Assembly (NCBI GenBank): GCA_032718475.1
Contig: JAUCBJ010008074.1
Coordinates: forward strand, 19,127-83,126
Source: Nemertoderma westbladi
Lineage: Eukaryota; Animalia; Xenacoelomorpha
Reading direction: 5' to 3'
Length of the DNA stretch: 64,000 nucleotides
Made by a program: the position numbers and the translations under genes. The first letter of the stretch is position 1. Each line of letters begins with the position of its first letter. Below, piece after piece: positions 1 through 43,668 of this stretch. Under the pieces are notes generated by a model. That model was given only the letters and a program-made list of their open reading frames with translations, was not told where the DNA came from and did not search any database.

Positions 1-2194
1 TATGATGAGATAGAGGAAAGGGAGTGTAGGGAGCGTGAAGCGAGAGAGGAAAAGGAACGCGAGGAGCGTGAGGCGAGAATGGAAAAGGAACGCGAGGAGC
101 GTGAGGCGAGAATGGAAAAGGAACGCAAGGAGCGTGAGGCGGAACGCAAGGAGCGTGAGGCGGGAATGGAAAAGGAACGCAAGGAGCGTGAGGCGGGAAA
201 GGAAAAGGAACGCAAGGAGCGTGAGGCGAGAAAGGAAGAGGAACGTAAAGAGCGTGGGGCGAGACGAAGGGAGAGCATTAAGAGTGCCGCAGACTCGGCC
301 ATCAAGGACACCCAGGAGCGTGAGGGGATAGTGGCAAAGGGTGAAAAGGAGCGCAAAGAATTAAAGGAACGGCAGAGTGAGTATGCGAAAGATATAATTA
401 GAGGGACGCACGAGTTGGAATACGTGCGAGTGGGACCGCCGTCTGAAACCAGGGCCGGCTCGAGTATTTTTGAGGAGCCGAGGGCCGTAGACGTATTTGT
501 TAATACTCCACTGACAGGGACCGCGCGACAGACTCAAGACTGGTGCGACCGTACGAGCGGGGGGGGTAATAATAATAATGGTACAGTAGACGTTGTTGAT
601 ATTAATAGTACCGTATGGGATAACGCTAATCAAACCTTTATTACAGGAAATACTTTGCCTGGTGGTAGTAATTTAAATTTAAATCAGAACGATCCTAGTG
701 TTAATGTAGAAAATAATCCTAATATTGATGTAGTTACGCAAAATAATTCAAATAATCAAAATAATAACTCGAATTCGGACCTACAAAATAACTTAAATAA
801 CGCAATTACACAGAATAATTCGAATAATTCAAATAATAATCTTAGCCCGAATTTACAAAATAATTCAGATAACATAGTCGCGCAGAATAATACAAATGAC
901 TTTGTTTCAAATGAGCAAATTACTTCCGTTTCCAATATGGGTGCTATTAGTGTAGACACGTCGGGCCTACGTAACCAGGGAGCAGAGGGCCTGGTAGGCC
1001 GCGTAGTTAGTAGACAGGGAGCAGAGGGCCTGGTAGGCCACGTAGTTGGTAGACAGGGAGCAGAGGGCCTGGAAGGCCACGCAATAGCAGAGGGAGAGGC
1101 GGGGGTGAATAGACCCGACTGTGGTAGGGTTGATGTGTCGACTAGAGAGATATATAGTAGCGGGGCGAGAGGTAGCGAAGTTAGATGTAGCGAGTGGGGG
1201 GGGGCTACGAGCACCCCACAACAGAGAGTTAGCGGCGAGAGGGGGGGGGGGGGGGGCAGAGAGTGTCCCACAGCCGTCAGCGGACAATGCGAGGGCCGAA
1301 CAAGGTAAACCGCAACAACCGGCGACGGAGAGTAATAGGGGGATTGCGAGTATCCCCGGCGACGTGCGATCAAGCAGAGAAAGACAGGTTGACGTCGCGG
1401 GAGGGCAGACGGAACGTCGAGCCCGATCAGAGGAGGAAAGAAGAACAGTGGGGTTTAACCGGGAGGTCGACGAGAGATCTCGTGAGCGGGAATATTCCAC
1501 TGATAGAAGAAGAGAGGAAGAGAGTAGTAGAAGTATCGCCGCAAAAGATAGAAGAGCGAGGACGGATAGCGAGCCGTCGGTAGTCGAGATGAGAACGGAG
1601 AGTCAGTGGGGTCGGACTCCGGGAGATTGCTGTCGCCCCGGAGGGATGCGATCCGGCGAGGCGCATTACGCGCCGAGAGAGGGGTACGCGATGTATCGGT
1701 ACGAAGATGAAAACAGTGGAGAGGGGGGTCGAAGAGAAACTTTCCGACGGAATATACCTACCGATCGAGAATACGGTAGCCGCGGGGAGGATTATTCGAG
1801 AAGAATAAACTTCGATCCCGAACAACACATGCAGACTGTAGGGCACACTGTAGGTCTTACTGCACATACCGTAGGCCATACTGAGAGAGGCGATGTAGGT
1901 GATAGGATAGCGCGGACAACGGGATTAAACCCGGAAGTCGCGGAATACATACCGGCGGGTAGGCCAGAAGCTGATAGGCCTATACCGGTACCAGCACAGC
2001 AGTATGACTACAGCATGCAGGGACATAACATATACCCAGGGGAGGGGGGAATTATTGCGGATAGGTGTATGGGCCCCAACATATTAACATCAACCCCAGT
2101 ACCAGACATACCGGTGGGGGGGGACAGGGTGACATTCCCCCATCACAATATCAACAATATACCCCGACAGGAACAAGAACAACGAGACCCCTAG
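1..2194 (+). CDS. gag: N-terminal Gag region of element 1 (charged coiled-coil repeats, Asn-rich tract), split by frameshifts at poly-G runs ~1240-1256 and ~2116-2123
   Basis: Frame 1 is open from base 1 to 1308, overlaps ORF 1121-2194, which overlaps ORF 2065-7455; each overlap contains a G homopolymer. Confidence 0.65.
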
Positions 2195-5100
2195 ATGAAA
2201 ACAGGTCGTGTGATACAGACATATGGAGGGGGCCGCTACCCCCGATGACATATCCGAGTCAGAGAAGATCAAGAAGTAGGACGGACGAACCGCACCAGAC
2301 AGGGGAAACTATACAGCACCCGTCGAATCCATTAGAAGCGCAGGCAATGGGGATGGCCACGTTGATCGATGCGTTGAAAACGAGGATCGAATTACCACCC
2401 GTGGAACCGTTCAAATTCGATGGGAGCAGGCCGGAAGAATACTTACAGTTCCGGCGAATGTATAGTAACGAAATACTAACAAAAAACTTGACGCAGGCGG
2501 AGTGCCTGAAGTATCTACAAGTGTACACGGGAGGCCCAGCATACGACATCGTGAGGCAATACCAAGGAATAGAGGGCGGCTTCACGACAGCATGGCGGGC
2601 ACTGGATAGGGAATACGGGCACCCGGCCAAGATCATCAGGCAAACGCTGAGAGGCATAACATCGGGTGGCCTACAGGATAATCCCGTTAGCATTAAGACG
2701 TTTGCTAACAAAGTCGAGAAGGCGCTGATCGTGCTGAAGACGTTAGACGCGCCATACGAACTCAACGCGTCCAATAACATCACCACGATAGCGCAGGCAC
2801 TACCGAGCTGGCTGCGCAACAAATGGAGGAAGGTTGCTTTCTCCACCCGAGACAAGAAGGGTGCGGAACCAGGTTTAGAAGAAATGTCAAACTTCTTAAA
2901 TTACGAAGCTGAACTAATAACGGACCCAGTCTATAGTGAAGATAGCCTGGGAAAGGGACCAAAGACAGATCACTACAGGCCCAAACCAGAGCACAATACA
3001 TCGAACGCGCTACCGAGACTCAGGCAATCATTGCCATATGCAGCGACGCAGGGGACTGCAAGTCCACAGACAAGCGAAGATAGGACAACATCAAGGGACG
3101 GACAGGGGAACAATAACAACATGAATAAACATAACCCCAGTACGTCCAGTAGGTCAAACCCAGTCAATAAGAATAGTAGGGACTTTGGTACGAATATAAC
3201 TGCGATACGCAATGCATTGTATAAAGAGGGCTATGACCCAAAGAGCAAATGCCAGTTACACGCAAATGCGCTTCATAAAACCATGAACTGCAGGTACTGG
3301 CAGGCGCTACCGAGGCAAGACCAGATAGATTACGCGTCGAGCAATAAAATCTGCTCGCGATGTGTGAAAAGTGGACACAAGGCCAGGGAATGCCAAGAGA
3401 AACCGGTCAAGTTTGGCCAGAGGAGAGGCCAGACGATGGCAACGAGCACAGTAGGGGCGAAGAAGAGAGGAACAGTGCTACTTGGAGTAGTACCAGTACG
3501 AGTGATCGGGGAAGGCAATCGATCAGTAACAACATTAATGCTGGTTGATAGTGGAGCTGCCTTCACATTAGTTGAGGAATGGGTAGCCGAAGAAATAGGG
3601 TTGAGAACGAGGCCAAGCAGGATGGCGGTGACAACCATCTCTAGCAAAGACGAGATCCTAGAGATGAGGACAGGACGGTGCGCAATTGCAGCAGTGGCAC
3701 CAGGATGCGATTATGGGGCAACCATCGACCCCATCCAAGTAATAGAGTCAATTAACATCAATGCCAGGCGGCCAACCAACATCGAGGTCGAGCAATACAA
3801 ATTCCTGGACAACATTGACTTCTCAATCCCAGACGTGGACGTTAGGAAGGTATCCATCATAGTAGGCATGGACTGCCCAACGGCCCACGAGAGAATGCAG
3901 ACGGTCTTCGGCGAAGACAAGCAGAGCGACCCGGTGGCCATATTAACGCCATTCGGGTGGACGCTGAGTGGTCCAATTAAGAGCAAGATACCATTCAGGA
4001 TGTCGGAGACATCAGGATGCATGTTCGCGGGAACAATGCAGGAAATGGGTGACGAGGGAGCAGAGGAGCAGCTTAAAAGACTGCTCAGACAGGACTTCGA
4101 GGGACTGAAAGAGACCGGGGTCGGGACCTCGGTAGAAGACAAGCAGGCTCTACAAAGCGTGGAGGAAACGATGACGTGTGATGAGGGGCGGTATACAATA
4201 GGAATGGTGTGGAAACTACCGAAGATACCGCTACCCGATAATAGAGGGATGGTGCTCACGAGACTCCGCAAGCTGAAACAAACACTACAACGGAGCCCCG
4301 AGAAGAACGAGTACATTCACAAAACCATTAAGAAGTACGTCGAGAAAGGATGGGCCGTGGAGTTACCGGTCGACGAACCGAACACGGACAGGACATACTA
4401 CCTGCCACTCCACGTAGCTTTAGACCCAAAGAAAGGTAAACTTAGGATGGTAGTCGATGCATCGGCAAAGACCGACGGAAAGTGCTTAAACGATTACCTA
4501 CTAGAGGGCCCAAACATATACAATTCGGGCATAGAAGTACTACTTAGATTTAGGAATGGGAAACACGCCTTCACGTGTGACATAGAAGGCATGTTCAACC
4601 AAGTCCGAGTAACAGAAGAAGATAGTGACAGTCAACGCTTCTTATGGTATAACGGCGAAGAAGAACCGCCGGTAATACCAGCGTATAAGATGGTAGTACA
4701 AAATATGGGGGCCAAGTCGTCCTCGTTTACGACGACTATGGCAGTGAGAGACACGGTAAAGGGCAAGGAAGATAGATATAGCAGTAGGGCCGTCGACATG
4801 ATCAGACGCGGTTTCTACGTAGACGACGGCATGGAGTCTGGAAATACGGTTGAGGAGATACTGGAAACAGGGCGCGAGGTTCGCGACATCCTGAAAGGAT
4901 CCGGCTTCAACCTGACCAAATTCCAATCCAGTTCAGAAGAATTTATCAGGGAAATAGAAGACAAGAAACCAGAATCGACCATGGACAACCCTACAACAGC
5001 CAAAGGACAGGACATGGCGATTAAGAGAACGGAATCCCAGCAGAAGGCGTTGGGAATCGTGTGGGATAGAAAAACAGACGAACTGAAGTATCAGCTGAGC

Positions 5101-7455
5101 CAGGAGGGCGCAGACACCCATACGAAGAGGGGTTACGTATCGTATATAGCAAGGATATACGATCCCCTAGGCCTAGCATCCCCATTACTAGTCACGGGGA
5201 AACAGATACTCAAGAGAGTATATAAGTTGAAGGATGAGTGGGACGTAGAGGTACCAGAAGACATCAAGAAACAGTGGAGCAAATGGACAGGAGACTTGGA
5301 GAGGATGGGAACATACAACATGCCGCGAGTGTATTTCCCGGACGGGAACATGACGAATCTGGACCTACATATGTTCTCCGACGCGTCGTTAGAGGCATAC
5401 GGAGCGGCACTCTATTTAGTACAACGAGAGGGGCCTCACAAGCCCAGACTAGCCTTTAGCAAAGCTAAGTCAACGCCGCCAGATTCAGCATCTGTTCCCA
5501 AGTTAGAATTGACAGCCGCGAGACTAGGAGTTAGAGCCACAGCCTACCTAGTGGATACAATTCCCAACATAGTGGAGACACACTACTGGACGGACTCCAT
5601 GGTAGTGCTTGGTTGGCTACACAACGAAAAGACGAGGTACCCGATATTCGTCGCGAATAGAGTGGACGAAATAAGGGCGAGCACAGAACTGGAAAGGTGG
5701 CACTACTGCCCAACAGACGAGAACCCAGCGGACTTGCTGTCGAGGGGCGTGGAACGCCACACTTTCTTAAAGAAAGAAGCATTGTGGCAACACGGGCCAC
5801 AATTTCTGAGCGATAGGGAGGCCTGGCCGCCGATGAGGAAGGTGGACCCGGGCTCGGAAGTAGTATCAGAAGGAGAAGAGGGAGATTCAGAGGGAGAAGA
5901 GATATACTCCCAGATGGTGAGGGAGATCAGGGACGTGCAACCAGGAAGGGAACTGTGCGATAACCCGACGGATAAACTCCTCAGCTACAGTTCTAGTTGG
6001 TATAAGACCAAGAAACTAGTGGCGTACTGGAGAGCCTTTGGGAATTTCCTTGCGGGAGTCGGCAAGGACAAGAAGACCAGGACAACCATAGATCTGGAAG
6101 GAGCGGCCAAGGCAGTGATCCGCTATGAACAACGCAAGAACTACGGCGACGAGGTGGAACGTGTCGGTAACCAACAACATCTCCGACGGGATAGCGAGCT
6201 GATCACGCTGTCGCCACAACTCAACGAGGATGGGATCCTAGTAATGAATTCTAGGGTGGGATATAACAACAGTATAGTCGTACCACCGAAACCCATCATC
6301 ATTCCCACAGGATCGCCCATAGTCCACCAGATCATATGGGACTCCCACAAATCGATACTGCATGGGGGCACCAACCGAACCCTCACAGAGATAAGGAGGA
6401 CCTATTGGGTCAAACAATTAAGGAAGAAGGTGAAAGCGGTAGTGGGACAGTGTCAGACCTGCCGACGAGCGAAGAAGGAGCGAGCCGTACAGGAGATGGC
6501 GCCACTACCGGCGAGTAGGGTAAAACAGCACGACCCGCCATTTACACATTGCGGTGTGGACATGTTCGGGCCGATAAAGATCAAGGTGATGCGACACACG
6601 GAGAAACGCTACGGTATTATCTTCGTATGCAACAACACGCGGGCGGTAGGGATAGAACTCGCCCAAGATGCAACCGCATCAGCCTTCATTAACGCCTTAG
6701 AAAGGTTTAGGGACCGCAAAGGTGGGACGATCGCAGTGATATACAGCGACAACGGCACCAACTTTGTGGGCGCAGAGAGTGAGATGGCAGAGGCCTTAGA
6801 AATCTTGGAGGGAGAAGAAGTCAGGGCGGCCATGAGAAGACGACAAGTGAAGTGGGAGAGAAGGACGCCGTATGCACCACATACGTTAGGATGCGTCGAG
6901 AGACTCGTGGGCAGTTCAAAACGTCTAATGACGAAGCTGATGAACACCCACATGGTCACTGAAGACGTCTTACGGACAGTACTTGCGAAGTGCGAGGGGA
7001 TAATTAATAGCAGACCGCTATACCCGGAGAATGATGACCCTGAGTCATTAGATGTGCTGACGCCTAGCCATTTCCTCATGGAAAGGCCAGCGACCATAGA
7101 TATGCGGGGTGTAGACCCAGATGATATACACTCCCGCCAAAGTTGGAAAGTAGCTAAAGCAATTAGCGCAGAGTATTGGAGGAGGTGGGTAGAAGAATAC
7201 CTACCCACGCTCCATAAGCGAAGCAAGTGGAGGAAGCCAAATAGGGAGTTGAGAGAGGGAGATCTCGTAATCGTCACGGATGATACTATCATCAACAACC
7301 AATGGCGGTTGGCGAGAGTTGTAGGCACCTACTCCGACAGGGACGGAAGAGTCCGATCGGTAGAAGTGCGGATAGGTGGAAAGATAGGTGCGAAAGACAG
7401 AAAAACCTACAGGAGAGCAGTAGGTAAATGCTGTCTTCTAGAAGGGGCACCTTAA
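2065..7455 (+). CDS. pol: Bel/Pao Gag-Pol polyprotein (Gag core, Zn knuckles, aspartic protease, RT, RNase H, integrase)
   Basis: LPPVEPFKFDG Gag core; CSRCVKSGHKAREC; LVDSGA protease; FYVDDG RT; HMFSDAS RNase H; HGGTNRT..CQTC, GVDMFGP, YSDNGTNF integrase; C-terminal W.LARV...DGRVRSV; 1796 codons without a stop. Confidence 0.96.
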   Translation: MYGPQHININPSTRHTGGGGQGDIPPSQYQQYTPTGTRTTRPLDENRSCDTDIWRGPLPPMTYPSQRRSRSRTDEPHQTGETIQHPSNPLEAQAMGMATLIDALKTRIELPPVEPFKFDGSRPEEYLQFRRMYSNEILTKNLTQAECLKYLQVYTGGPAYDIVRQYQGIEGGFTTAWRALDREYGHPAKIIRQTLRGITSGGLQDNPVSIKTFANKVEKALIVLKTLDAPYELNASNNITTIAQALPSWLRNKWRKVAFSTRDKKGAEPGLEEMSNFLNYEAELITDPVYSEDSLGKGPKTDHYRPKPEHNTSNALPRLRQSLPYAATQGTASPQTSEDRTTSRDGQGNNNNMNKHNPSTSSRSNPVNKNSRDFGTNITAIRNALYKEGYDPKSKCQLHANALHKTMNCRYWQALPRQDQIDYASSNKICSRCVKSGHKARECQEKPVKFGQRRGQTMATSTVGAKKRGTVLLGVVPVRVIGEGNRSVTTLMLVDSGAAFTLVEEWVAEEIGLRTRPSRMAVTTISSKDEILEMRTGRCAIAAVAPGCDYGATIDPIQVIESININARRPTNIEVEQYKFLDNIDFSIPDVDVRKVSIIVGMDCPTAHERMQTVFGEDKQSDPVAILTPFGWTLSGPIKSKIPFRMSETSGCMFAGTMQEMGDEGAEEQLKRLLRQDFEGLKETGVGTSVEDKQALQSVEETMTCDEGRYTIGMVWKLPKIPLPDNRGMVLTRLRKLKQTLQRSPEKNEYIHKTIKKYVEKGWAVELPVDEPNTDRTYYLPLHVALDPKKGKLRMVVDASAKTDGKCLNDYLLEGPNIYNSGIEVLLRFRNGKHAFTCDIEGMFNQVRVTEEDSDSQRFLWYNGEEEPPVIPAYKMVVQNMGAKSSSFTTTMAVRDTVKGKEDRYSSRAVDMIRRGFYVDDGMESGNTVEEILETGREVRDILKGSGFNLTKFQSSSEEFIREIEDKKPESTMDNPTTAKGQDMAIKRTESQQKALGIVWDRKTDELKYQLSQEGADTHTKRGYVSYIARIYDPLGLASPLLVTGKQILKRVYKLKDEWDVEVPEDIKKQWSKWTGDLERMGTYNMPRVYFPDGNMTNLDLHMFSDASLEAYGAALYLVQREGPHKPRLAFSKAKSTPPDSASVPKLELTAARLGVRATAYLVDTIPNIVETHYWTDSMVVLGWLHNEKTRYPIFVANRVDEIRASTELERWHYCPTDENPADLLSRGVERHTFLKKEALWQHGPQFLSDREAWPPMRKVDPGSEVVSEGEEGDSEGEEIYSQMVREIRDVQPGRELCDNPTDKLLSYSSSWYKTKKLVAYWRAFGNFLAGVGKDKKTRTTIDLEGAAKAVIRYEQRKNYGDEVERVGNQQHLRRDSELITLSPQLNEDGILVMNSRVGYNNSIVVPPKPIIIPTGSPIVHQIIWDSHKSILHGGTNRTLTEIRRTYWVKQLRKKVKAVVGQCQTCRRAKKERAVQEMAPLPASRVKQHDPPFTHCGVDMFGPIKIKVMRHTEKRYGIIFVCNNTRAVGIELAQDATASAFINALERFRDRKGGTIAVIYSDNGTNFVGAESEMAEALEILEGEEVRAAMRRRQVKWERRTPYAPHTLGCVERLVGSSKRLMTKLMNTHMVTEDVLRTVLAKCEGIINSRPLYPENDDPESLDVLTPSHFLMERPATIDMRGVDPDDIHSRQSWKVAKAISAEYWRRWVEEYLPTLHKRSKWRKPNRELREGDLVIVTDDTIINNQWRLARVVGTYSDRDGRVRSVEVRIGGKIGAKDRKTYRRAVGKCCLLEGAP

Positions 7456-7567
7456 ATTAGAGTTAGTGTGAAGTTTAGTCGTCCAAGTTTTGGACTGAGG
7501 GGGGTGGGATTGAGGGCGAGACACCCTTCCCACACAAATAAAATAAAATAAAACAAAAATAAATAAA

Positions 7568-8085
7568 AGTTAGTTAGTTAGTAGGTACGTAGTACCTAGA
7601 GTTAGTTAGTTAGTAGGTACGTAGTACCTAGAGTTAGTTAGTTAGTAGGTACGTAGTACCTAGAGTTAGTTAGTTAGTAGGTACGTAGTACCTAGAGTTA
7701 GTTAGTTAGTAGGTACGTAGTACCTAGTTAGAGTTAGAGGGTACGTAGTACCTAGTTAGAGTTAGAGGGTACGTAAAGCCTAGTTAGAGTTAGAGGGTAG
7801 GTAGTACCGATAGTTAGAGAGTTAGTAGGTACGTAGTACCTAGTTAGAGTTAGAGTTAGAGGGTACGTAATGCCTAGTTAGAGTTAGAGTTAGAGGGTAG
7901 GTAGTACCGATAGTTAGAGAGTTAGTAGGTACGTAGTACCTAGTTAGAGTTAGAGTTAGAGGGTACGTAATGCCTAGTTAGAGTTAGAGTTAGAGGGTAG
8001 GTAGTACCGATAGAGTTAGAGTTAGTAGGTACGTGGTACCTAGTTAGAGTTAGAGTTAGAGGGTACGTAGTACCGATAGTTAGAA
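7568..8085 (+). repeat. Tandem repeat (~25-32 bp, GTTAGTAGGTACGTAGTACCTAGA core) in the pol-ORF3 spacer
   Basis: Repeated units directly visible. Confidence 0.9.
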
Positions 8086-8592
8086 AGAGAGAGTAAGAGG
8101 TAAAAGGGGTAAAAAAAAATAGGATATAGATATTAGATAGCAGTAAGTAGAGTTAGTAGCGAGAGGGGGGCATATGAGTGCAGCTGGATAAATCGTGTGG
8201 CCACACGACGCATACGGCTGTACTGCATAGGCCCACTGAGTAGGCCAGAATATGGATCAGAGAGAGAATAGAATAAATCCATAGGCAGTAGTAAGTAGTA
8301 GGACAGTAGAATCAAAGAAAAATAAATAAATAAATAGAATAGGGCTAAAATCGGAAAATAGTGGTAACACAAGGAAAGTCGTTCTAGAACATAATAAAAG
8401 TAACGGACGGAAATTGTAAATTAGGCTGATTTACTAGCTCCGAAATTAATTAGATTAAATTAAGCTTGAAAGGCGCAGTTAAGTAGAAAAGCAGGCCATT
8501 ATCGAACTGTAAGAAACATCTTAGTACATCACTCATCTGTATTGCGCCTTGGTAAGGCACCACCCTACAGGTGAGCGAGTGTAGTGTTCGGA

Positions 8593-11127
8593 ATGGCGAG
8601 TAAGCTGATCAGGAAGAGAAAAGCGGAGTCGGGAGGAAAAGAAATATTGGTGGATTTCACCGAAAGACACCCGGAGGAGAAGACGAGAGGATACTACGAG
8701 AGGTTGGAAAGGGGTCACGCGGCACGAGCGCTGCAGGATCACTTCCGGGAGGCGCACGAACAGCGGTTGGTCGGGACCTACGGGACGCCGTCGCTGGATA
8801 ACGCGATCTTCCAACACTTCCACTACGTGGTGAAAGGAGACGAGGCGAAGTTCGGGATTCCGAAGTATCCGAGGGAATCGCCGAGGAAGGACTGGAAAAG
8901 ATTCATAGAGTCCGTCAACAGAGGAGGATATATGATCCTAGATGACGAGGGAACCGTGGAAGACGAAGCGGGTTCGAGACGAGGAACGGCAGGGTCGGCC
9001 AGGACCATACTCTTGCATTTGGCAGCGCCAAATGGGGACATCTTCTTATTCGACCTAGGGACGTATGGGAAGAAGGACGGGCCGAAATTAGACCGACTGC
9101 CGAAAGCGGTACAGGTCTTAGTAAGAGAGAAGTCGACGACGAAAGTGGGATCGGCGATTCGCGAGGACGCGGAGAGGATCATCGGTCCGGACGCCACCAA
9201 CCTCCTGGATATGCAGAAAGTCTTTATGGCTATGACGGCACCGGATGGATTGGGGGTGGTCGAGAACTCAGGCCAATGCGGGGCGGTGGCGATGGGCCAA
9301 TTATTGGGGCTCGTATGCCACAAACCAATGGATTGGGGGAAGTTTAGGGAAGAATACGGAGCGGAACTAGCGAACTCGCTGAAGTGGGGAGCGAGACCGG
9401 GAAAGCAGGAGGTATATCAGTTTCGCAGAGGAGCGATAAAGGTATATCAGAAGCGATATATCCTGCAGGAGGACTGGATGATGATAAGTTTACTTAACTT
9501 ATTCATGACCGTAGTTATCGAAAGGGAACCAGGGGCATTTCTGTTATCGGGATCACCCCTAAGCTACAGGAGAGCCTTTAAGACGGCCTTTGACGGTCTG
9601 GTAGACCACCCGGGGCTGAAGGGCGAGTCGGTGTACTACAACAGCCGACATCTGGTAGATGGGGAAACGGATACACCGTATCAGAGATGGGAGCAGCTAG
9701 AGATGGATAGACGGGAAGCAAAGCGACTGGAAGAAGTCGCTAGACGGGAGAGGATAGAAGCAGAGGAGAGGGAAGAGGAGGCCAGGACACAGAGTTATGG
9801 CTTCGAGGAACAGGCGGGCCTAGACGAGCTTCATTGGACTTCGTCAGGGAGTTCGGGGGAGTCTCTAGGGCGAGAATTGGGATGGACGGTGGGATCGCCG
9901 AAACAGTCGACGTCGGGGTTGCAAACGATGCCCATACCAGCGGGCGCCGAGGGCGACCAACCGCCAAGGAAGTTAAGGGAGCTAGAGGGATGGAGAGCTA
10001 CGGGCGAAAGCCAAGGCGGAAAGGGACATAGTGGATCCGTCGGGATACCGGGATTGGAGACGCTACCGGAAGAAGAGGACGACGACGACGAATTCGGAGA
10101 GATGCCGCCCATCGAGAGAATAGGCCACTCGGACACGGACTGGGTTGGCGGAAGGGTGGTGACGGCCAGTGGGGCGAGGGCCTTCTGGAACAGATCCGGC
10201 AAGCGGACCTGGGTGCACGAGGGGCCGGCGATGGATTTCGCAGGGAGCACCATCAGGTTGGGCGAGCAACCGGGGACGGCACCACGGATAGTATTCGGGG
10301 AGACGATGCCCGAGAGGGGCGGAGAGATCGACGTAAACAGGGAGAGCAACGTGGAGAAGTTTGCCTACCAGCGACTCCATAGACCGCGGAGATCGCTTGG
10401 GACAAAGGACGAGGTGGGACGCGAGACATTGGTACTCGGCTGCGACTACTGTGGGAGACAGACCCATCAGGAAAGCAGCTGCCTATACCGGTTCCAACGG
10501 GGAACCTTTTGTCTCTATTGTAGAGAACCAAGTCACAGGATGGGGGCGTGTCCACGGTTGCATAACCGATGTCCAAAGTGCCACTTTCGGGGACACTACG
10601 GACGCGAGTGCGACTGGATGAGCGACGAGGAGAAGTTCACAAGGTTCGAGGAGTGGGCCGACGTCGGGGCCATGACGCGCCAGCGCATGAAGGCCCAAGA
10701 GTTCAAGTGGGGTTTCTTCCTCATAAACCAGGAGACCCACATGGAAATCATAAAGCGAAGGTTACCGTTTACCTATCAAGAGGTAGCTACGGCGGCATCG
10801 TTCGCCGGAGTTATGAACACGCAACGGTACCTGGACAGGTGGACACCAGAGAACCGGAGGGAGTTTAGGGATTTCTTGGCGGAACACGTACCAAAGGCAA
10901 TGAAGATGATCCTATGGGACGCCACACGAGGGAAACAACCAGGCCATTCTGAGGGGCCACCGGCGAAGCGGTATCGGGCTTTAATAACACCAGCGCCCAA
11001 GGAGCCGACGACCGGGATCAGCAAGGAAGTGGCAGCGAAGGTCCGGAAGCAGAAAGCGGATGATGCCAGAGGAACAGTGATAACCAAGAAACGGGCCAGG
11101 GAGGAGGACGTGAGGAGGTACAGATGA
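8593..11127 (+). CDS. Element 1 ORF3: DEDDy-like 3'-5' exonuclease domain, acidic linker, three CCHC zinc knuckles
   Basis: First ATG at 8593; ILDDEG, ILLHLA..GDIFLFDL, LPKAVQVLV...KVGSAIRED, LLDMQ, YQKRYILQE; three exact CX2CX4HX4C motifs at 10441-10613; homologs at 31795-33579 and 63107-64000. Confidence 0.8.
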   Translation: MASKLIRKRKAESGGKEILVDFTERHPEEKTRGYYERLERGHAARALQDHFREAHEQRLVGTYGTPSLDNAIFQHFHYVVKGDEAKFGIPKYPRESPRKDWKRFIESVNRGGYMILDDEGTVEDEAGSRRGTAGSARTILLHLAAPNGDIFLFDLGTYGKKDGPKLDRLPKAVQVLVREKSTTKVGSAIREDAERIIGPDATNLLDMQKVFMAMTAPDGLGVVENSGQCGAVAMGQLLGLVCHKPMDWGKFREEYGAELANSLKWGARPGKQEVYQFRRGAIKVYQKRYILQEDWMMISLLNLFMTVVIEREPGAFLLSGSPLSYRRAFKTAFDGLVDHPGLKGESVYYNSRHLVDGETDTPYQRWEQLEMDRREAKRLEEVARRERIEAEEREEEARTQSYGFEEQAGLDELHWTSSGSSGESLGRELGWTVGSPKQSTSGLQTMPIPAGAEGDQPPRKLRELEGWRATGESQGGKGHSGSVGIPGLETLPEEEDDDDEFGEMPPIERIGHSDTDWVGGRVVTASGARAFWNRSGKRTWVHEGPAMDFAGSTIRLGEQPGTAPRIVFGETMPERGGEIDVNRESNVEKFAYQRLHRPRRSLGTKDEVGRETLVLGCDYCGRQTHQESSCLYRFQRGTFCLYCREPSHRMGACPRLHNRCPKCHFRGHYGRECDWMSDEEKFTRFEEWADVGAMTRQRMKAQEFKWGFFLINQETHMEIIKRRLPFTYQEVATAASFAGVMNTQRYLDRWTPENRREFRDFLAEHVPKAMKMILWDATRGKQPGHSEGPPAKRYRALITPAPKEPTTGISKEVAAKVRKQKADDARGTVITKKRAREEDVRRYR

Positions 11128-11835
11128 GTTCCCGGAGGCGAGGGAATGAGACTGAGACTGGGACGTGGTGCGCCTGGAAGGTGCCGCATGTAACGTACGA
11201 ACTATTAAGTATAAATTTAATTAATGCAAATAACTATATAAGTGCAATTTGTATGTACGTACGTAGTGATTAGCAGTAAAATACATACGTTTGGAGTAAG
11301 TACTATAGTCATGCAACCTTTCTCAATTAGCTACTGGGACTGGGGGACAATTGACTATGGCACTATGGACGAGACAACTGACAATTTCACACTTCTTGAG
11401 TGCGGCGGCACGAGAGGGGGGGGAGGTTCGTCAGGAGAGATAAAACAGTCAAAGTGGACTTGGGAACCGGAATAAGAGTGTAAAGTGCGGAGAGAGTGCG
11501 AACGCAATTCTAGTGTGGGGGGGGGGAGAATAAGAGGCTGAGTGAGGGACGAGGAGGTCCGGGGGTATGAGAGAGTTAGGGTGAGAGTAGAGGGGAGATA
11601 GGGCGAAAGTGTTGGGGAAACAAAAGTTGCGTGGGAGGCGAGCGCGACCGGCCCGACATGAGACGCCAGGCACACAGGGTAGCGATATCATACCCATAGG
11701 GGGCGGCCTGGAAAGCCGACCCCGAGAGAAAAGAATTCCACCCCACACCCGATATTAGATCGGGATCCAGCGGGATTGTAGCGCACTTTTTTGGTTGATG
11801 CTATCTTCTTACCGGGAAGATAGCATGGGGGGGAG

Positions 11836-12372
11836 TGTTAGCTTATTCAATCCCGCCAACACCCCATAAAGTTATTAGCCGATAAGCAATATTGGGAGCC
11901 GCGAGATTGGGTAATTAACCAACTCACGCCATCCCAATAAGAATGGGAAGGAAGCACACAATAGAGGGTCAGGGGCCAAACCCCTAACCCAGAGAACAGG
12001 TGGAGTGAACGGGAATACTCCACGGGGCGCCAACAAGGGTATTAACCAATCAGAGGCGGGAATGGCATCGATTGAGTAGCAGTAAGGCCACCGTGCAATA
12101 TAACCAATAACCTATTAATCAGTGATTCAGTTATCTCAAGTGCAGCAGTGCTAGCGTAGGGTACAGCCAATTAGTTTAGTTAGGGGATCACGGGACTTTA
12201 GTTACCGTATCCCGCCTTGTACACATTCACAATATATCTATATCTTATAACCTCCTATTATACACCGAACTTCAGAACTCAGTCACTTTATTTCATCCTT
12301 ATACACGGCGGGGACGCGTGGACTAAATTACCACAACCGGATAAATCGGGATCCCCCTTGGATCCCGTCACA
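11836..12372 (+). repeat. 3' LTR of element 1 (~537 bp)
   Basis: Starts TGTTA right after the PPT and ends TCACA abruptly at the satellite; partner LTR not in window. Confidence 0.75.
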
Positions 12373-13793: not shown

Positions 13794-14007
13794 GTGAGTT
13801 TCTTTTTTCGAGGGGCTTCAAAGAAATCAGGAATATAAATAGTAAATTTTATTTAGAAAATAACCAATCAATGTATAATTGAAACTGGACTTTCGATCTA
13901 TGTAACAACTCTTTAAGTAATCGAAACTTTAAAATTAATTCGCCATCGGTGAGGATTGAATCCGCGTCTACCAATAATTATACAAACAATAAATTATCTC
14001 TCCCCAG

Positions 14008-14320
14008 TGTTACCGCGGCTATCTTATAGTGATCGCCCGAGACACAAAGACTCTCCCGAGTATACGACCCGGGGTCTACAAGGAGATGTTTATCGTTTCG
14101 ATCTACGACATACAACACAAATTCGTCGCCTACTCCGCACCCATGTCCGGTGTGTCCGAGGTCCTCTGTGAATGGGGCTCGCTGTATATACTAACATCGG
14201 ACAACCATCTGGTACAACTGGTAGAGAAGGATACCCAGAGTAAACTAGAGTTGTTGTTTAAGAAGAATCTATACGATGTTGCTATTCAACTCGCTAAGTC
14301 TCAGCAGTTTAATCATAATG
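14008..14320 (+). CDS. VPS11: VPS11 internal exon (HOPS/CORVET subunit)
   Basis: ccccAG acceptor; CYRGYLIV...EWGSLYILT...EKDTQSKLELLFKKNLYDVAIQLAKSQ; GTAAG donor at 14321. Confidence 0.92.
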
Positions 14321-14404
14321 GTAAGCAGAAGCACCATGGGAATTTACTGAATAAAATTTTTATGAGATTTTACCGTGCGGAGGGGTAAGAACAATCTTTT
14401 CGAG

Positions 14405-14682
14405 GCCCATGTGAAGAATACCACCAGACTTTCTGCCGTTATATTTCACTTTGCAGTTACCCCAATGTGAAGAATACCAGGTTTTCACCAAAACCACAGG
14501 TTACAGAAGGGCTGAATCTATCCAAAACAATAAACGAATTAGTATATGTACAGGTTATAAGACAGAAATAAGCGCTATAAAACACTTAATAAAGATAAAT
14601 TAAAAAAAAAAAAAATCTTCATATATAAAATTCCAATAAAAAATCGACCGAAAAGTGAAATCCTGGTATTCTTCACATGGGC
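14405..14682. mobile_element. MITE-like element with 19-bp inverted repeats in VPS11 intron
   Basis: GCCCATGTGAAGAATACCA / TGGTATTCTTCACATGGGC; partial third copy near 14466; no clear TSD. Confidence 0.6.
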
Positions 14683-30313: not shown

Positions 30314-31617
30314 TGTTGCCGTTATTCCCGACACCATGGGGGAAAACGCCGATGCTGGAGGCGGAATTTTCAGACCACGGGATTCCGGCCAGTCACCGGA
30401 TATTGGGAGTGGAGAAGGAGTCCTTTCTGAGATGCAAGATTGCAATTGAGAAAACGTTGCATTGGTTGGATATAATCTTTTAATGTAACTTTCCTACAGT
30501 TGAATCTTGATTGAGAGTAAGTTGGGCTTCCCCACACCAATATACACCAAATATTCACAATAATATACGAACATATAAATTCCTACAGTACATTAATTAA
30601 TTACCCACTGTTCGCTTTAGATTTTAACCTAACTAATGATCCCCATTTTCCCTCGGTCCTAGTCCCGGTACCGTAGTGTCGGTGTCGGTCGACCCTGTTG
30701 CGTGTCCGTCCCACCCTTCCCGAACCCCAAAGGGATCGGTCATCAGGAAAGCGGTAAGGCTTGGCTAGGGGTCTGTCGGTTCATCGCAGGGTCCCAACCA
30801 CCTAAGCTTTCCGAGTCCCTTTCAGGCTCGTAGTCGCTTCGGTAGCCGAGAAGCTGCTCCGAATAGTCGGTAGGCCAGTAGAGTCCGGTCCTTTGTCTTT
30901 CGACCCCGTTGAGTGTCCGTCCCACCCTTCCCTAACCCCGAAGGGATCGGTCATCAGGAAAGCGGTACGGCTTGGCAAGGGGTCTGTCAGCCTGTTGTGA
31001 GTCCCAACTGTCGGTTGCTTTCTGAGTCCTTATTCAGGCTCGTACTAACGCCAGTCGTGGAACCCACTCCAGGAAGGCAGTCCTCGTCGAACCCTTCCTC
31101 CGTTTAGTCGGTCGATCCGTTGCAAGTCACCGGTGCAGTCGGCAAGCTTTCCGAGTCCTTATTCAGGCTCGTAATAACTGCCGGTGACCAGGGACCGCTA
31201 AGGATCTGTCTGTCGGTTTCCGTCGCAAATCCCTGACACAATCAGCAGACTTTCCGAGTCCTTATTCAGGCTCGTAATAACTGCTGTTGGCCAGGAACCG
31301 CTAAGGGCAGTCCTTGTCCCTAGGCCTAGCGAGTTACCAAATCCACCTCTACAGGCAGCAGGAAGTTGGCTAGGCCTAATAGTATCAGGTAAACCTGAGT
31401 ACTGCTTGATTTTGCCTCCCACCCTTGGCCCTTAAATATCTGATATGAGTCCCGTGCCCCGTAAGTCGCCCCAATATTCGCCCGTGAATCGCACCCAGTC
31501 CATTGAATATACCCAAATTCCATGTTCCCGCACCCAGTACTGATATTGGAATATTCATTATAAATAAATCCAAAAAATATTCAACTCGCGTTATGAAAAG
31601 TTGAAATACCGCGAACA
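30314..31617 (-). repeat. 3' LTR of element 2 (~1.3 kb)
   Basis: TGTTGCCGTTATTCCCG...TACCGCGAACA shared with 43877-45368. Confidence 0.9.
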
Positions 31618-31794: not shown

Positions 31795-33579
31795 CTATTT
31801 CTTACTCTGATACGCTTTCCTTCTCTTCGCCCGTCTACTCTCGTCGATCGCCAGTGCAGGTAGGGGAGCGTCAACGTCCATCGCGAGCATCGCTGCAGCT
31901 TGTCTCCTGGCGGCCCTTCCTTTGGATGGTAGCGGGATCATGTCCGTCCGTCTCTCCAACTCGGTAGTGCGTGCCTCTAGAAACCACTTTCCATCACCGA
32001 ATTCTTCTTTGTAGGAGTATAAGCGCCTGAGGATCTCGAAGGGACCGAATAATCCAGCGCTCAATAGTAGATCCACATAATGGAATGGTAGTGTCGATGC
32101 CGTATGGAGGCGTTCTGGGAACGAGAAGTATCCGCACGCCATCTCTTGCGCGACATTTCGAGCGCTTCTCCACACTTTGGTCTTTACGTGGTTATTGGCG
32201 TAGGTTTCAAACATAACCATATTTCCCATAGCTGTTACGTCTTTAGTAGGACACTTTATGTTACAACGGGGACTCGCGGAATGTCCACGGAAACCGCATT
32301 TTGTGCAGAGGTTGTAAAGGGTAGGACAAACCGAAACATCGTGGCCCGATATCGCGCAATAGGGACAGTAAAGTATCCCAAGGAGCTGGAGGCACAAATC
32401 GGTAACCCGATTTCTCCTTCCGCGTGGACACTGTTCCGAACTGCAGTTTCCGCACACCTCCAGTTGCATCTCCCGGCCGAAGAATATCGGGATCGGTACG
32501 CCGGCGTAATACTCCAGCCATCGGTCACTTTTGGGGATACTCGCAGTTGCCGGTAGCCCGCGGAATGCTGGGCTTTGGTGGAATATGTTCTCGCTACGAT
32601 AACCTTCCTTATAGCCCGCCGGTCGCATCCCGGGAGCCTGTTTCTGGCGGTGGATCCACTCGGTTTGTTCGGCATACCATCGGGTAAGTCGCATAGGGTC
32701 TTGTGGAATGGAGGGGGCCATCGCCACAGCCGGTCGGCGAAGGGGTACTGGCGATTTCGTCAGTCTCACTTCCCGGAATCCACGCATGAATTCTGTGGAT
32801 CGCAACCAGGCTAACAGGGTTTGGGTGTCGACGAAGTGACTAATGGTGCTGAGGTCTTCTTGTCGGTTTCTTCCGAAGGGAGCATTGGCGTAGTCATTCC
32901 GGATATCCGCTTTTATATCTGACCCAATCGTAATAACATCGAAATCGAATAGGATCTGTTGGATCTCCGGTGGTAATAACCAGATCGCTCCGGATGTCCG
33001 CACCTCCTGTTTGGGTGTCGAGAAGATCCGACATATTAACACTAGACCGTCTAGGGTTCCGAGGACGACGACTAATGATCGACCGTATTCCTTTGTCCCA
33101 TACTTCTCCTGGTAGTCATCGCGGTTCTGGATGACCGATATACGCTCCTCTCGTAGCGACGTTGTACATTCCGCTAGGTTTCCCCAGTGGGTGAGGTATG
33201 TACTCTTGTCGTCGACGAAACTTTGGCATCGCACCAACGTAATCGCTTTCGAAGTGGGCGTCGCGTTTCCCTCGTTGTCATATATCAAACATCGGGATTT
33301 GTAGACGCTTCGACGGAACGTTTCCCAGAACGTCAACTCCGCTCCTCTGGTTGCCTTTGCGTTCCGAGTTCTTTTCAGGCTCGTACTAGCATCGGACAAC
33401 CAGAGCTCTCGTAGATTACGGGAATCCGGTTCCTCTCGCCCAGAGAATTTAATGATTCGCACATTCTCTGTTATCAGGGCGTTCCATTTCGTATCAAAGT
33501 TAGGAGATCTAGGCTGTGGATATTCCAGTAAATCGAGAGTGTTACGTAATTCGCCGAGAATTTGGCGATTTGAGTCCAT
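31795..33579 (-). CDS. Element 2 ORF3: DEDDy-like exonuclease N-part plus CCHC cluster (probably internally deleted)
   Basis: IYDNEG, LVVVLGTLDGLVLI, LPPEIQQIL...IGSDIKAD, FVDTQ; CPYCAISGHDVSVCPTLYNLCTKCGFRGH; FETYAN, CGYF, LPFHY match element 1 ORF3. Confidence 0.78.
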   Translation of the reverse strand: MDSNRQILGELRNTLDLLEYPQPRSPNFDTKWNALITENVRIIKFSGREEPDSRNLRELWLSDASTSLKRTRNAKATRGAELTFWETFRRSVYKSRCLIYDNEGNATPTSKAITLVRCQSFVDDKSTYLTHWGNLAECTTSLREERISVIQNRDDYQEKYGTKEYGRSLVVVLGTLDGLVLICRIFSTPKQEVRTSGAIWLLPPEIQQILFDFDVITIGSDIKADIRNDYANAPFGRNRQEDLSTISHFVDTQTLLAWLRSTEFMRGFREVRLTKSPVPLRRPAVAMAPSIPQDPMRLTRWYAEQTEWIHRQKQAPGMRPAGYKEGYRSENIFHQSPAFRGLPATASIPKSDRWLEYYAGVPIPIFFGREMQLEVCGNCSSEQCPRGRRNRVTDLCLQLLGILYCPYCAISGHDVSVCPTLYNLCTKCGFRGHSASPRCNIKCPTKDVTAMGNMVMFETYANNHVKTKVWRSARNVAQEMACGYFSFPERLHTASTLPFHYVDLLLSAGLFGPFEILRRLYSYKEEFGDGKWFLEARTTELERRTDMIPLPSKGRAARRQAAAMLAMDVDAPLPALAIDESRRAKRRKAYQSKK

Positions 33580-34776
33580 ATTTTAAATTATGTCCGTTGC
33601 AAATGTACATCAGTTAATTATAAATCCAGAAAGTCTGATTCTATAGTGACTGCAGAATAATTCAGTTTATTATTATTCAGTTTATTATTGCTATATAGGC
33701 ATCTACCATCTTATTGCTACTACATTCAGTATTTACAGTTACTATAGCTATACATTAATATCCAACCAGTTTTTTACTTTTTATGTCCTATTCTTTTTCC
33801 AATTCTTTTCTTTTCTACATTTTATACATTTTTTTGTCTTTTTTCATTTATCATTTATTATTCATTTCACATTTCATTATTTCTTTCCACATTTCATCAT
33901 TTATTTCCACATTTCATCATTTATTTCCACATTTCATCATTTATTTCACATTTATTACACATTTCATTTATTTCCATTTCATCATTGGGGTTATAGCCCC
34001 CCGACTATCATCATTTTGTTATAAGCGCAGCACCAGGGTGCGCATCATTACATTTTCATCATCATATGCGTCATCATTCAGTTTATAGTAGGGTTGTCTG
34101 TTTCTTTTCATCATTTCCAAACTACATTCAACCATCTTCTTTGGGAAATTTTCGTTGTGGAAGGGGTGTTACGCGGCAATCTGGGATCTACAGCTGGGCT
34201 AGTTACACCGCCTATGCCCCAAACTGCACACGTAACGGACAATGAAGACGCTGGAAGTGAAGTCACGTGGAATGCACCAGGGACCCACCAGAATAACACT
34301 CCCAGCAACATAAAGTTCAGCCGACGAAGTCATGTGGGATGGGGTTACGCAACATTCTGGGATCTACAGCTGGACTAGTTACACCGCCTATGCCCCAAAA
34401 TCCACGCAACGGTCCCACCAGAATAACGCGACTGAGAAACATAAAACCTCTATCGACGAAGTCATGTGGATGCACCATGGACCCACCAGAATAACGGGAT
34501 AGAGGGGGTGTTGCGCGGCAATCCAGGATCTACAGCTGGACTAGTTACACCGCCTACCAATAATCCAATGTCGTTGGTCCCGATGACCAAAATCAGGGTA
34601 AACAATACATAAACGACCCTGCGTCAGTCGAAACATCTGCAGGGTGACGCTGGACTCCACATAACACACGAGGAAACACAAATACCATTGCGTGGTTGCA
34701 GTTGGTTTAAGGGGGTTCCATTACTCATTGTCAGTAAATCACGTTTTAAAGAGTTTGTCAACAGGATGAGAAGGGT

Positions 34777-37700: not shown

Positions 37701-38425
37701 ATCCTCTTCGGACGGGTTTTCGTCCTTTTCAGCGAACTCTTGGGTCTCTAGATTAAAGTATTTAGTCATCTCTTGCTGGGTTTTCTCTGTCTCGAGAAAC
37801 AAATCCTCGTCAATGTCTGTAGCTGAACAATAACCCACGGATGTTGCATTCTCTTTAATCTGACATTTAGGAAGGTATGTATAGGTGTCAGTAGTCTCTT
37901 TCTTGATGCCGCAGAGTGTCCATCCCATTATTGTTCGTTCGGCGTAAAAGCCGTCATCCTGCTTTATAGATCGGGCGACGTCTCCGGTGTGTATGTGTAA
38001 TTCCGGTGTATCAAGTCCGATCAGTAGGGTGATGCGGTTTACATCCAACGGCGGGCACCTTAGGTCTACATCGTCTCGGTCCAACTGTATGAGGGGGGCG
38101 TACTCGGCTGATTGTCGGAACCACACTCGTAGGTTGGTGTGTACCAAGGCGTTCTCGATGGTCAGCTTAACTGTCTCGTAGCCCTTCATTACTACTTCCA
38201 TCTGGAGCTGCACCTCCCCGGATTCTACCTCTCTATGGTCGGTGATAGTTTGTATGGGCCGTTTGCAAGGTTCATAGTCTAGGCCGAGTTGCTCAAGGAA
38301 ATCCCAGTCGATGATGGTTCCGTCCGATCCGTTATCAAGGAACGCGAGCGTCGTCAAGGATTTGCCGACCCCTTGAATTCTTACTGGGATTACTTTGGCA
38401 AAGACCATGTAACGGCGATTTATAA
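34777..38425 (-). pseudogene. pol: Element 2 pol (PR, RT, RNase H, partial IN); frameshift ~36545; integrase Zn finger and part of core deleted near 35517
   Basis: FLDNGS, FYVDDG, HTFSDA, NPADLSSRG; KVKYP joins directly to ASREAIEG..WHFQTPLAPH. Confidence 0.9.
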
Positions 38426-43480: not shown

Positions 43481-43668
43481 TGTAGCGCCTTGTCGATAGC
43501 TAGATGTGCGATGTCGTAAAATAGTTCCTCGTAGGTATTGTACTCAGCCTGGACCACCCGAACGGTAATCCTGAATCGTCCGACGTTCGTTCCTTGTACT
43601 TCAACCTCGACATGCCAGATTCCTGGCTCAACTTGGATTATATCAATGGGTGTGATCGATACTTCCAT
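43477..43668 (-). CDS. Small upstream ORF (63 aa) whose stop overlaps the gag ATG
   Basis: ATGA overlap at 43477-43480; non-repetitive sequence. Confidence 0.35.
   Translation of the reverse strand: MEVSITPIDIIQVEPGIWHVEVEVQGTNVGRFRITVRVVQAEYNTYEELFYDIAHLAIDKALQ

Follow-up and report, generated by a model that had tools for sequence, protein, structure and literature searches.

The window, a 64,000-nucleotide stretch of a Nemertoderma westbladi contig, opens within a Bel/Pao (Belpaoviridae) retrotransposon, element 1, which is read on the + strand. Its 5′ part (1..2194, +) consists of two overlapping low-complexity ORFs without a Pfam match (1–1308, open at the window edge, and 1109–2194), whose frame changes sit in overlaps with long G runs; they probably encode an extended N-terminal part of gag. 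The gag-pol ORF (2065..7455, +) shows the Pfam order DUF1759, Asp_protease, RVT_1, Peptidase_A17 (E=5.7e-40), Integrase_H2C2, rve and DUF5641, together with nucleocapsid knuckles, the protease DSG, the RT YVDD, RNase H and integrase. The PR-RT-RNase H-IN order and the Pao-specific domains place the element in Bel/Pao. A non-coding spacer of 1,137 bp (7456..8592, +), containing an imperfect tandem array at 7568–8100, separates pol from a further gene, ORF3 (8593..11127, +). Candidate splice acceptors ahead of ORF3 all lack a good pyrimidine tract (the best had 8/14), and the sequence lends no support to env-style splicing. A G-rich polypurine tract (11827..11835, +) and a candidate 3′ LTR of 537 bp (11836..12372, +) follow, the latter recognised by its TGT...ACA termini and by contigs of run X6 that end abruptly at 11836, where the LTR starts. 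Both fit the Belpaoviridae pattern of a tract of about 10 nt and an LTR of 0.2–1.2 kb (PMC8742986). The LTR carries TATAA at 12099 and TCAGTT at 12127, and a host minisatellite abuts its 3′ end directly; contig depth summed over the LTR exceeds that over ORF3, though such sums do not give copy numbers. Run X5, whose RNA origin is a guess, yielded 15 short contigs that speak neither for nor against expression. The 5′ LTR falls beyond the window edge, the LTR being known from the 3′ copy only, and the element is more than 12.3 kb long. Its host neighbour is a VPS11 exon, which reaches no more than 49% identity with that of any named animal.

ORF3 of element 1, whose protein we call P0001, is an unbroken frame of 844 aa starting at ATG. 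The initial annotation had described it as intact and lying inside a Bel/Pao element before the tract and LTR, which agrees with what we find. The chance-ORF reading was dropped, as the odds of a frame of this length arising from base composition are ~1e-16. The protein begins with a predicted exonuclease domain (aa about 60–345; 8770..9627, +), followed by a long charged helix (aa 362–403) and a disordered, acidic, low-confidence linker (aa 406–610; with the helix 9676..10422, +), which show no conservation in the family. Then come three zinc knuckles (aa 617–673; 10441..10611, +) and, 3′ of them, a helical cap defined by alignment and predicted structure (10624..10926, +). The motif scan bears out the three CX2CX4HX4C knuckles originally reported: they are exact, beginning at aa 617, 640 and 660, and only 1 in 10,000 shuffled sequences had even one. 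The first part of the cap, with an FExxAxxGxxT...WGFF-like motif, is kept across the family, and in the predicted model knuckles and cap form one confident folded unit, the second conserved module of the protein. The full-length AlphaFold2 model (pTM 0.47) leaves the mutual placement of the exonuclease and knuckle domains unfixed.

Position alone would suggest an envelope gene, as ORF3 shares with the env-like ORF3 of Belpaoviridae (PMC8742986) the slot between pol and the polypurine tract. It differs in its fold, that of an intracellular nuclease, and shows neither signal peptide nor TM anchor nor any likeness to a glycoprotein. The absence of signal peptide and anchor, claimed at the outset, holds: no transmembrane segment was detected in P0001, whose highest 19-residue hydropathy is 1.3 (aa 290–308, the ExoIII helix), and whose basic N-terminus contains nothing resembling a signal. 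A retroviral-type env reading is not supported on these grounds. Basic clusters lie at both ends of P0001 and may be regarded as NLS-like.

Two further family members lie in the same window, both on the − strand and both overlooked in the initial annotation. Element 2 has a 5′ LTR of 1,492 bp (43877..45368, −), a gag-like ORF (42620..43543), a pol that is split over two frames and interrupted by a gap within its integrase region (34780..38489, −), an ORF3 (31795..33582, −) and, after a G-rich tract, a 3′ LTR of 1,304 bp (30314..31617, −). A LINE sits between pol and the gag-like ORF, and pol is 30–37% identical to that of element 1. The LTR pair agrees in 1,126 of 1,260 aligned columns (89%), and its members (1.3–1.5 kb) slightly exceed the family range. 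No clear PBS or TSD was seen for element 2; its insertion site is a 21-bp satellite. Its ORF3, flanked by both LTRs, is a 595-aa open frame (P0098; family profile E=1.6e-34) that has the ExoI D-x-E, the ExoII D and the knuckle-cap module and lacks the ExoIII half of the nuclease. The third member, P0099 (63240..63998, −; E=5.6e-10), is a fragment covering the second half of the exonuclease domain, and it runs to the window edge, giving no element context.

Homologs of ORF3 came only from an exhaustive HMMER search (75 matches, of which P0043, a 14-repeat protein, was dropped as false); word-based searches with P0001 and alignment A1 returned none. About 30 remote full-length homologs were found, all without annotation, and the family is 15–23% identical to P0001. 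At all three informative loci (element 1, element 2 and the metagenome contig L002) a Bel/Pao pol lies upstream of ORF3, while three more family loci carry no usable context. Scans of viral contigs (A2, A5, A6, A7, A8), metagenome contigs (P0001) and genome contigs (A6) added no ORF3 loci. The expectation that the ORF would recur in other copies, linked to Bel/Pao pol, is borne out: it recurs in numerous related copies as well as in further Bel/Pao lineages. Three unrelated elements have ORF3 in the slot between pol and the 3′ LTR, with one conserved two-domain architecture. Since the ICTV profile lists only gag, pol and env among Belpaoviridae genes (PMC8742986), and ORF3 of elements 1 and 2 is a separate gene that begins 1.1–1.2 kb beyond the stop codon of pol, its role is more readily seen as accessory than as core. 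In a four-taxon RT tree elements 1 and 2 join at 81/86; this join is unstarred and does not establish a clade of ORF3-bearing elements. The exonuclease tree is a quick tree with P0002, P0019, P0023 and P0031 left out.

Such a gene could be a recent host capture, or a neutral passenger that does nothing for the element. In keeping with this, just one of the three family copies in the window is complete, and L004, a Bel/Pao element found through its pol, has no ORF3, although it is internally deleted. Against it, ORF3 occupies the same position in elements whose pol proteins are only about 30% identical, and none of the 30 homologs looked up is a named host gene. In codon usage each ORF3 is closest to the pol of its own element (r 0.75, 0.59 and 0.89 at the three loci), and for element 1 the figure of 0.75 with pol compares with 0.20 for the host exon. 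Among the variants listed in related copies, 35 of 40 in the exonuclease core and 27 of 32 across the ORF are silent, against 33% expected, and those of the core include no indels. This pattern points to strong purifying selection, in line with the non-neutral evolution first anticipated. We regard the passenger explanation as largely refuted and very improbable, and ORF3 as almost certainly a functional gene borne by the element.

The family profile and predicted fold identify the N-terminal domain as a DEDDy-type exonuclease. P0001 by itself has no Pfam match, and PF01612 is reached at E<1e-3 in 2 of 42 homologs; the family profile A1, in contrast, matches EXD2 (E=1.7e-10), the Trypanosoma brucei RNase D TbRND (2.8e-8), Egalitarian (1.6e-4) and WRN (1.3e-3). 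In structural alignment by VIA-align the P0001 model scores Z 14.7 with Nibbler (rmsd 3.3, 204 aligned), 14.0 with WRN, 13.8 with TbRND and 13.1 with Rrp6, and Z values of 13–14.7 across about 180–207 residues (VIA-align/Foldseek) indicate the RNase H-like DnaQ fold. The top Foldseek match is TbRND, with Egalitarian-RNA complexes among the top rows, and the AlphaFold2 pLDDT of the core is mostly 75–94. The DEDD fold that had been expected is thus predicted by AlphaFold2, Foldseek, VIA-align and profile alike. The donor subfamily cannot be narrowed to the proposed WRN/EXD/mut-7 group, since RNase D, NrnC and Rrp6 score comparably in structure, Z lying within 1 across Nibbler, NrnC, WRN and TbRND. 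The animal proteins EXD2, Nibbler (mut-7), WRN-exo, Egalitarian and EXD1 share the fold, with the best profile match to EXD2 and the best Z to Nibbler, but are 11–16% identical and none appears here with a knuckle-cap module. An Rrp6-HRDC reading is not supported: P0001 and the 42 homologs have no HRDC Pfam domain, the family profile search gave no Rrp6 row at E<=1, and the region after the exonuclease domain is, in the predicted model, a single helix and a disordered linker.

The proposed DnaQ/DEDDy motif order stands in that the motifs map to the ExoI, ExoII and ExoIII columns of a 34-row family alignment, which hold D117-x-E119, D192, D206, Y289 and E293 of P0001; it needs correcting at the last acid, which is Glu (YxxxE) in place of Asp. 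The predicted catalytic codons (all +) are D117 (8941–8943), E119 (8947–8949), D192 (9166–9168), Y289 (9457–9459) and E293 (9469–9471). Of the 34 rows, 14 show Asp and 12 show Glu in the ExoIII acid column. In TbRND the counterpart of E293, Asp230, is a direct metal ligand whose loss leaves trace activity only, so the activity of P0001 is not certain. The ExoIII acid is present in 20/20 rows with the ExoI D-x-E and in 4/11 without it, the rows not being phylogenetically independent. That the acids stay together in 20 of the 31 rows without gaps suggests that catalysis is under selection in most lineages, that of P0001 among them; we consider the copy in element 1 somewhat more likely than not to be active. 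The full D-E-D-Y-[D/E] set is kept in only 16 of the 34 rows. To judge from these residues, catalysis has been lost repeatedly among the homologs, including two whole clades (P0014/P0038/P0032/P0068 and P0040/P0062/P0064/P0067).

These losses bear on the possibility that ORF3 is mainly a non-catalytic RNA adaptor similar to Egalitarian or EXD1, binding element RNA through the exonuclease fold and knuckles for export, protection or transport, with nuclease activity secondary. Five changes of ExoI state on the knuckle tree, and an ORF3 of element 2 that stays open despite the missing ExoIII half, suggest that catalysis may be dispensable. In the two clades without catalytic residues both domains persist, and the Egalitarian-RNA complexes in the Foldseek results and the NLS-like ends would also suit an adaptor. 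The joint retention of the acids speaks against it as the general role, which we consider unlikely, though a real contender. Under either reading, ORF3 is very probably an RNA-binding protein of DEDDy fold.

A close parallel in design is TbRND (PDB 7C42–7C4C; PMC7797062), in which a DEDDy exonuclease is followed by tandem CCHC knuckles that strengthen both the binding and the cleavage of RNA; each of its two domains is matched by the family profile. TbRND, a host enzyme of the mitochondrion that trims guide-RNA U tails, carries four knuckles and its linker is short. In ORF3 there are three knuckles, followed by a helical cap, and the linker runs to about 270 aa; identity is 13–17%. We infer that the shared architecture is likely convergent, a likeness of design and not orthology.

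The bdelloid rotifer elements Juno and Vesta are gypsy-type LTR elements, unlike the Bel/Pao hosts of ORF3 here. They carry a DEDDy ORF3, as do Terminons (PMC5408684, PMC6431247), and the mention of such ORFs in the initial annotation was correct (PMC5408684). These accounts describe a separate non-env ORF downstream of pol with an RNase D-like domain, no TM segment or signal, and a presence in only some lineages, much as in our family. No triple-knuckle module is mentioned in the text consulted; the comparison with P0001 is by description only. The rotifer motif change is DEED, at the third acid, whereas P0001 keeps D192 and has Glu as fourth acid; E occupies the D192 column in 1 of 34 rows. 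Exonuclease ORF3s in rotifer LTR elements were known already; our literature searches found no Bel/Pao exonuclease ORF3 and no such exonuclease-knuckle fusion. With a nuclease ORF3 in three distant Bel/Pao lineages and some 30 unannotated homologs, nuclease cargo extends beyond rotifers to a second LTR family.

For the rotifer DEDDy ORF3, the role proposed is to process the element's own replication intermediates (PMC5408684). Applied here, the nuclease would act within the virus-like particle or close to it, for instance by trimming the tRNA primer or the genomic-RNA 3′ end, or by clearing RNA fragments. Nucleocapsid-type knuckles bind genomic RNA (PDB matches to Gag NC), and the codon usage indicates long residence with pol. 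Yet such a gene is absent from descriptions of most Bel/Pao elements, dead versions persist, and an ORF3 unfused to Gag or Pol would have no obvious way into the particle. We rate this role slightly below that of an adaptor.

More remote is a DNA 3′-5′ exonuclease that would serve as a proofreader during reverse transcription, or would trim the ends of the cDNA ahead of integration, permitting larger genomes. Element 1 does exceed the 4.2–10 kb family range (PMC8742986), WRN and Pol I-type exonucleases tie structurally, and the DEDDy domains of Dada DNA transposons have been proposed to process 3′ ends (PMC3706591). Dada is a further case of a transposon-borne DEDDy exonuclease; its domain is embedded in the DDE transposase of a DNA transposon, while ORF3 is a free retroelement ORF. 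Against this reading, CCHC knuckles suggest RNA, family members diverge strongly and are often inactive, and the gene is separate from RT; we rate it improbable.

Nibbler, EXD1 and Egalitarian, structural neighbours of ORF3, are RNA-pathway proteins. We tentatively see ORF3 as a long-resident accessory gene of several Bel/Pao lineages, a predicted DEDDy 3′-5′ exonuclease most likely engaged in counter-silencing. The predicted two-metal nuclease would work with a zinc-knuckle module that, by analogy with TbRND, likely grips single-stranded RNA; the knuckles would choose the RNA and pass its 3′ end on to the D117/E119/D192/Y289/E293 site (PMC7797062). This coupling is not assured, since the linker of about 270 aa is far longer than that between Exo and ZF1 in TbRND (aa 268–295). 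In the least certain step, host silencing RNAs or their precursors would be bound and trimmed as a counter-defence. The structural tie with WRN and Pol I-type DNA exonucleases weighs against this, as does the 3′ 2′-O-methyl of mature piRNAs, which blocks such exonucleases. In the rotifer paper, too, copy number was not clearly tied to the presence of a DEDDy ORF3 (PMC5408684). As the main role, counter-silencing is the candidate we favour by analogy, with a probability somewhat short of even. The boldest version, in which a widespread and so far unannotated Bel/Pao group in invertebrates encodes a small-RNA-destroying DEDDy exoribonuclease that is aimed by its knuckle/helical-cap domain, has converged with the guide-RNA trimmer of trypanosomes and has more than once become a dead RNA trap, is unlikely to hold in full. 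As a single soluble protein with a mapped predicted active site, zinc ligands and natural dead variants, ORF3 offers a system for testing whether animal retrotransposons encode active anti-silencing measures.

The knuckle-cap module had no Foldseek match at E<=0.001, and its best VIA-align Z was 3.7, for the helical part only. On these models it may have no known structural relative, which does not in itself demonstrate a new fold. Its best ESM Atlas score is 0.86, to DUF8363/zf-CCHC clusters, and the module is a worthwhile structure target.

The 844-codon frame in the env position of the first Bel/Pao element (ORF3; 8593–11127, + strand) is a real, conserved accessory gene of the retroelement DEDDy exonuclease ORF3 type. 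It is uninterrupted (composition-based chance ~1e-16) and starts 1,137 bp past the stop of a 1,796-codon gag-pol ORF carrying the Pfam domains DUF1759, protease, RT, Peptidase_A17 (E=5.7e-40), integrase and DUF5641. Downstream, 708 bp separate its end from a G-rich tract, which is followed by a candidate 3' LTR (11836–12372, + strand; 537 bp, bounded by TGT...ACA); the contigs of sequencing run X6 terminate at 11836, where this LTR candidate starts. It contains a TATAA at 12099 and a TCAGTT at 12127, in keeping with the core-promoter consensus. The 5' end of the element lies beyond the window, and the element is described here from the part inside it. Across its whole 844-aa sequence the protein has no signal peptide and no TM segment; it carries three exact CX2CX4HX4C knuckles (aa 617, 640 and 660), and as a single sequence it has no match in Pfam.

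The initial annotation had anticipated a DEDD fold, and this is what is predicted. The profile of our 34-row family alignment matches the solved structures of EXD2 (E=1.7e-10), Egalitarian (1.6e-4) and WRN (1.3e-3), and matches trypanosome RNase D over both domains (2.8e-8). In the AlphaFold2 model (mean pLDDT 64.6, pTM 0.47), a disordered linker connects two domains predicted with confidence, and Foldseek ranks Trypanosoma brucei RNase D (TbRND), Egalitarian, Nibbler, EXD2, Rrp6 and EXD1 at the top; a viral library and the ESM Atlas concur on a 3'-5' exonuclease. The VIA-align Z scores for Nibbler (14.7; rmsd 3.3, 204 residues), NrnC (14.2), WRN (14.0), TbRND (13.8) and Rrp6 (13.1) tie, and thus pick out no single donor subfamily. 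Together with the helices that follow, the knuckles form one confident predicted unit (188 aa, pLDDT 85.7, pTM 0.79), which we call the knuckle-cap.

By alignment, the putative catalytic set is D117, E119, D192, Y289 and E293. The whole set is retained in 16/34 rows; at its last position, 14 of these 34 rows have D and 12 have E. The ExoIII acid is kept in all 20 rows that have the ExoI D-x-E versus 4/11 rows that lack it (Fisher p=1.3e-4, on 31 gap-free rows that are not independent of one another), and the ExoI state changes five times on the knuckle tree. Judged from these residues, most lineages, including ORF3 of the first element, look catalytic, and putatively dead versions have arisen several times. 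In the available text of PMC7797062, TbRND Asp230, the equivalent of E293, is an A-site metal ligand whose removal leaves trace activity; the Glu at this position therefore casts some doubt on catalysis by ORF3. That ORF3 acts as a non-catalytic RNA adaptor is a reading we regard as somewhat unlikely.

HMMER searches of 1.84 billion representatives returned 75 matches to ORF3 (E<=0.001), nearly all via the knuckle region; the family alignment comprises the query and 33 of the longer ones. Nine zinc-ligand Cys/His positions are invariant in it. The N-terminal domain, bearing the ExoI, ExoII and ExoIII motifs, is alignable in about 30 rows as well; overall identity is 15–23%. None of the 30 homologs looked up (from ENA, JGI, NCBI and Logan contigs of 2.6–31 kb) has a name beyond "hypothetical protein". 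Quick trees of the exonuclease and knuckle domains (30 rows each, four omitted) recover identical small groups of homologs (P0014, P0038, P0032 and P0068; P0040, P0062, P0064 and P0067; P0024 and P0074; P0005 and P0009; P0072 and P0073), indicating that the two domains travelled together. One homolog, P0002, has the knuckle module twice (aa 302–322 and 497–517) and a degenerate exonuclease region.

The gene also occurs in other Bel/Pao elements, the linkage that the initial annotation had proposed to look for. Scanning the window with the family profile revealed two further members. One is a 595-codon open frame (33582–31795, − strand; E=1.6e-34) lying between the LTRs (45368–43877 and 31617–30314) of a second Bel/Pao element (30314–45368, − strand); it keeps ExoI, ExoII and the knuckle-cap, with the ExoIII-bearing half of the exonuclease missing. 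The LTRs of this element, 1.3–1.5 kb in size, are identical in 1,126/1,260 aligned columns; its pol is split over two frames, a LINE (about 38471–41607; RVT_1 and zf-CCHC) is nested between gag and pol, and its insertion site is a 21-bp satellite. The second new member, at 63240–63998 (− strand), is fragmentary and lies on the edge of the window. Among metagenome contigs, three loci were found: L002 (7,104 bp), in which a complete ORF3 comes after a Bel/Pao pol of 1,136 codons; L001, which is taken up by a member of 1,161 codons and gives no context; and L003, a fragment without context. Bel/Pao pol linkage is thus seen in 3/3 informative loci, the other three of the six being uninformative, and the three linked pols share 28–37% identity. 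The codon usage of each ORF3 is closest to that of its own pol (r=0.75, 0.59 and 0.89; other pols 0.08–0.37), a match to which strand composition contributes, as an off-frame control reaches 0.47. The gene is optional among the family and separate from Gag-Pol; L004, a further locus found via pol, holds a Bel/Pao element that is bounded by LTRs, has an internal deletion and is without ORF3 (L004 positions 5615–11123; LTRs 98.7% alike). Its contig is filed as a bacterial MAG, probably through contamination, as it holds an animal Bel/Pao element.

Contigs covering ORF3 numbered 8,873 (X2), 5,031 (X3) and 122 (X6) in DNA runs of three studies; variants between them may reflect several copies within a genome, or more than one individual or species. 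Among the 40 best-supported of 607 differences, 32 fall inside ORF3 and 27 of these are silent, versus 33% expected (p=3e-9), and the 12 indels listed of 75 are all outside it (p=1.5e-5). For the exonuclease core, 35 of the 40 differences listed (of 96) are silent (crude pN/pS 0.07), none of those listed affects a catalytic codon, and the list includes no indel; nine sites are common to the two lists. Variation is thus non-neutral, in favour of the initial annotation, and that ORF3 is a neutral passenger appears very improbable. ORF3 is quick to diverge between lineages and conserved inside one, and dead, putatively RNA-binding versions persist.

Among solved structures, TbRND comes nearest in design: it is an RNase D with CCHC fingers at its C-terminus, comparable to the predicted exonuclease and knuckles of ORF3. 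The accessible text of PMC7797062 describes two-metal catalysis, and a sharp drop in RNA binding and cleavage without the fingers. By analogy, the knuckle-cap would grip single-stranded RNA for 3' trimming, and the RNA trimmed may be host silencing RNAs or their precursors, a putative target that we tentatively favour. A role in processing RNA or primer of the element itself is unlikely in our estimation, and DNA proofreading distinctly more so.

The rotifer precedent for DEDDy extra ORFs named in the initial annotation is correct: in the parts of the paper available, Rodriguez et al. 2017 (PMC5408684) report that rotifer Juno and Vesta elements and Terminons carry ORF3s of the DEDDy type, with a DEED motif and putative activity, as is restated in the available text of reviews PMC6431247, PMC5718144 and PMC6338049. 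A DEDDy domain is likewise described in Dada DNA transposons (PMC3706591, in part). The ICTV profile of Belpaoviridae (PMC8742986) gives gag, pol and env only, the word exonuclease is absent from the available main text of a Bel/Pao survey (PMC3118150) and of PMC2774666, and uncharacterised marine BEL clades are noted in the available part of PMC5029228. We found no Bel/Pao exonuclease ORF3 in the accessible full-text literature; annotation in a subscription paper, Repbase, GyDB or a supplement is possible. By these sources, new for retroelement DEDDy ORF3s are the Bel/Pao host, the fused knuckle-cap module and the breadth.

Several other features were observed. In L002, an in-frame 156-nt GT...AG stretch of ORF3 immediately ahead of ExoI (4131–4286; GC 44% versus 63–65% in the flanks, 3' end pyrimidine-rich) looks like a spliceosomal intron within a retrotransposon gene. 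In the first element, which exceeds 12.3 kb, the spacer between pol and ORF3 (7456–8592) contains seven AATAAA, three of them <=110 bp from the pol stop; directly ahead of the ORF3 ATG, at 8551 and 8569, it has GT motifs that resemble splice donors. Two overlapping low-complexity ORFs lie 5' of gag-pol (1–2194); as the overlaps contain G9, G16 and G8 runs, slippage or an assembly error may account for the changes of frame. A minisatellite spans 12373 to about 13850, and exons of the host gene VPS11 (13993–19766; best identity 49% to named animals), with a long, repetitive C-terminal extension, share the strand of the element; element and minisatellite probably lie within an upstream intron of VPS11. 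At 24461–29870, perfect inverted-repeat arms of 1,661 bp flank a 2.1-kb core in which short tandem repeats occur alongside a 255-codon ORF (26849–27613, − strand); the whole may be a DNA transposon of the foldback or large-TIR type. LINE-type reverse transcriptase pieces occur at 23368–24176, 57235–58043, 50071–51444 and 55972–58032, two of which, inverted relative to each other, are 98% alike, and a tRNA-Ser(AGA) is called at 21062–21143 (− strand).
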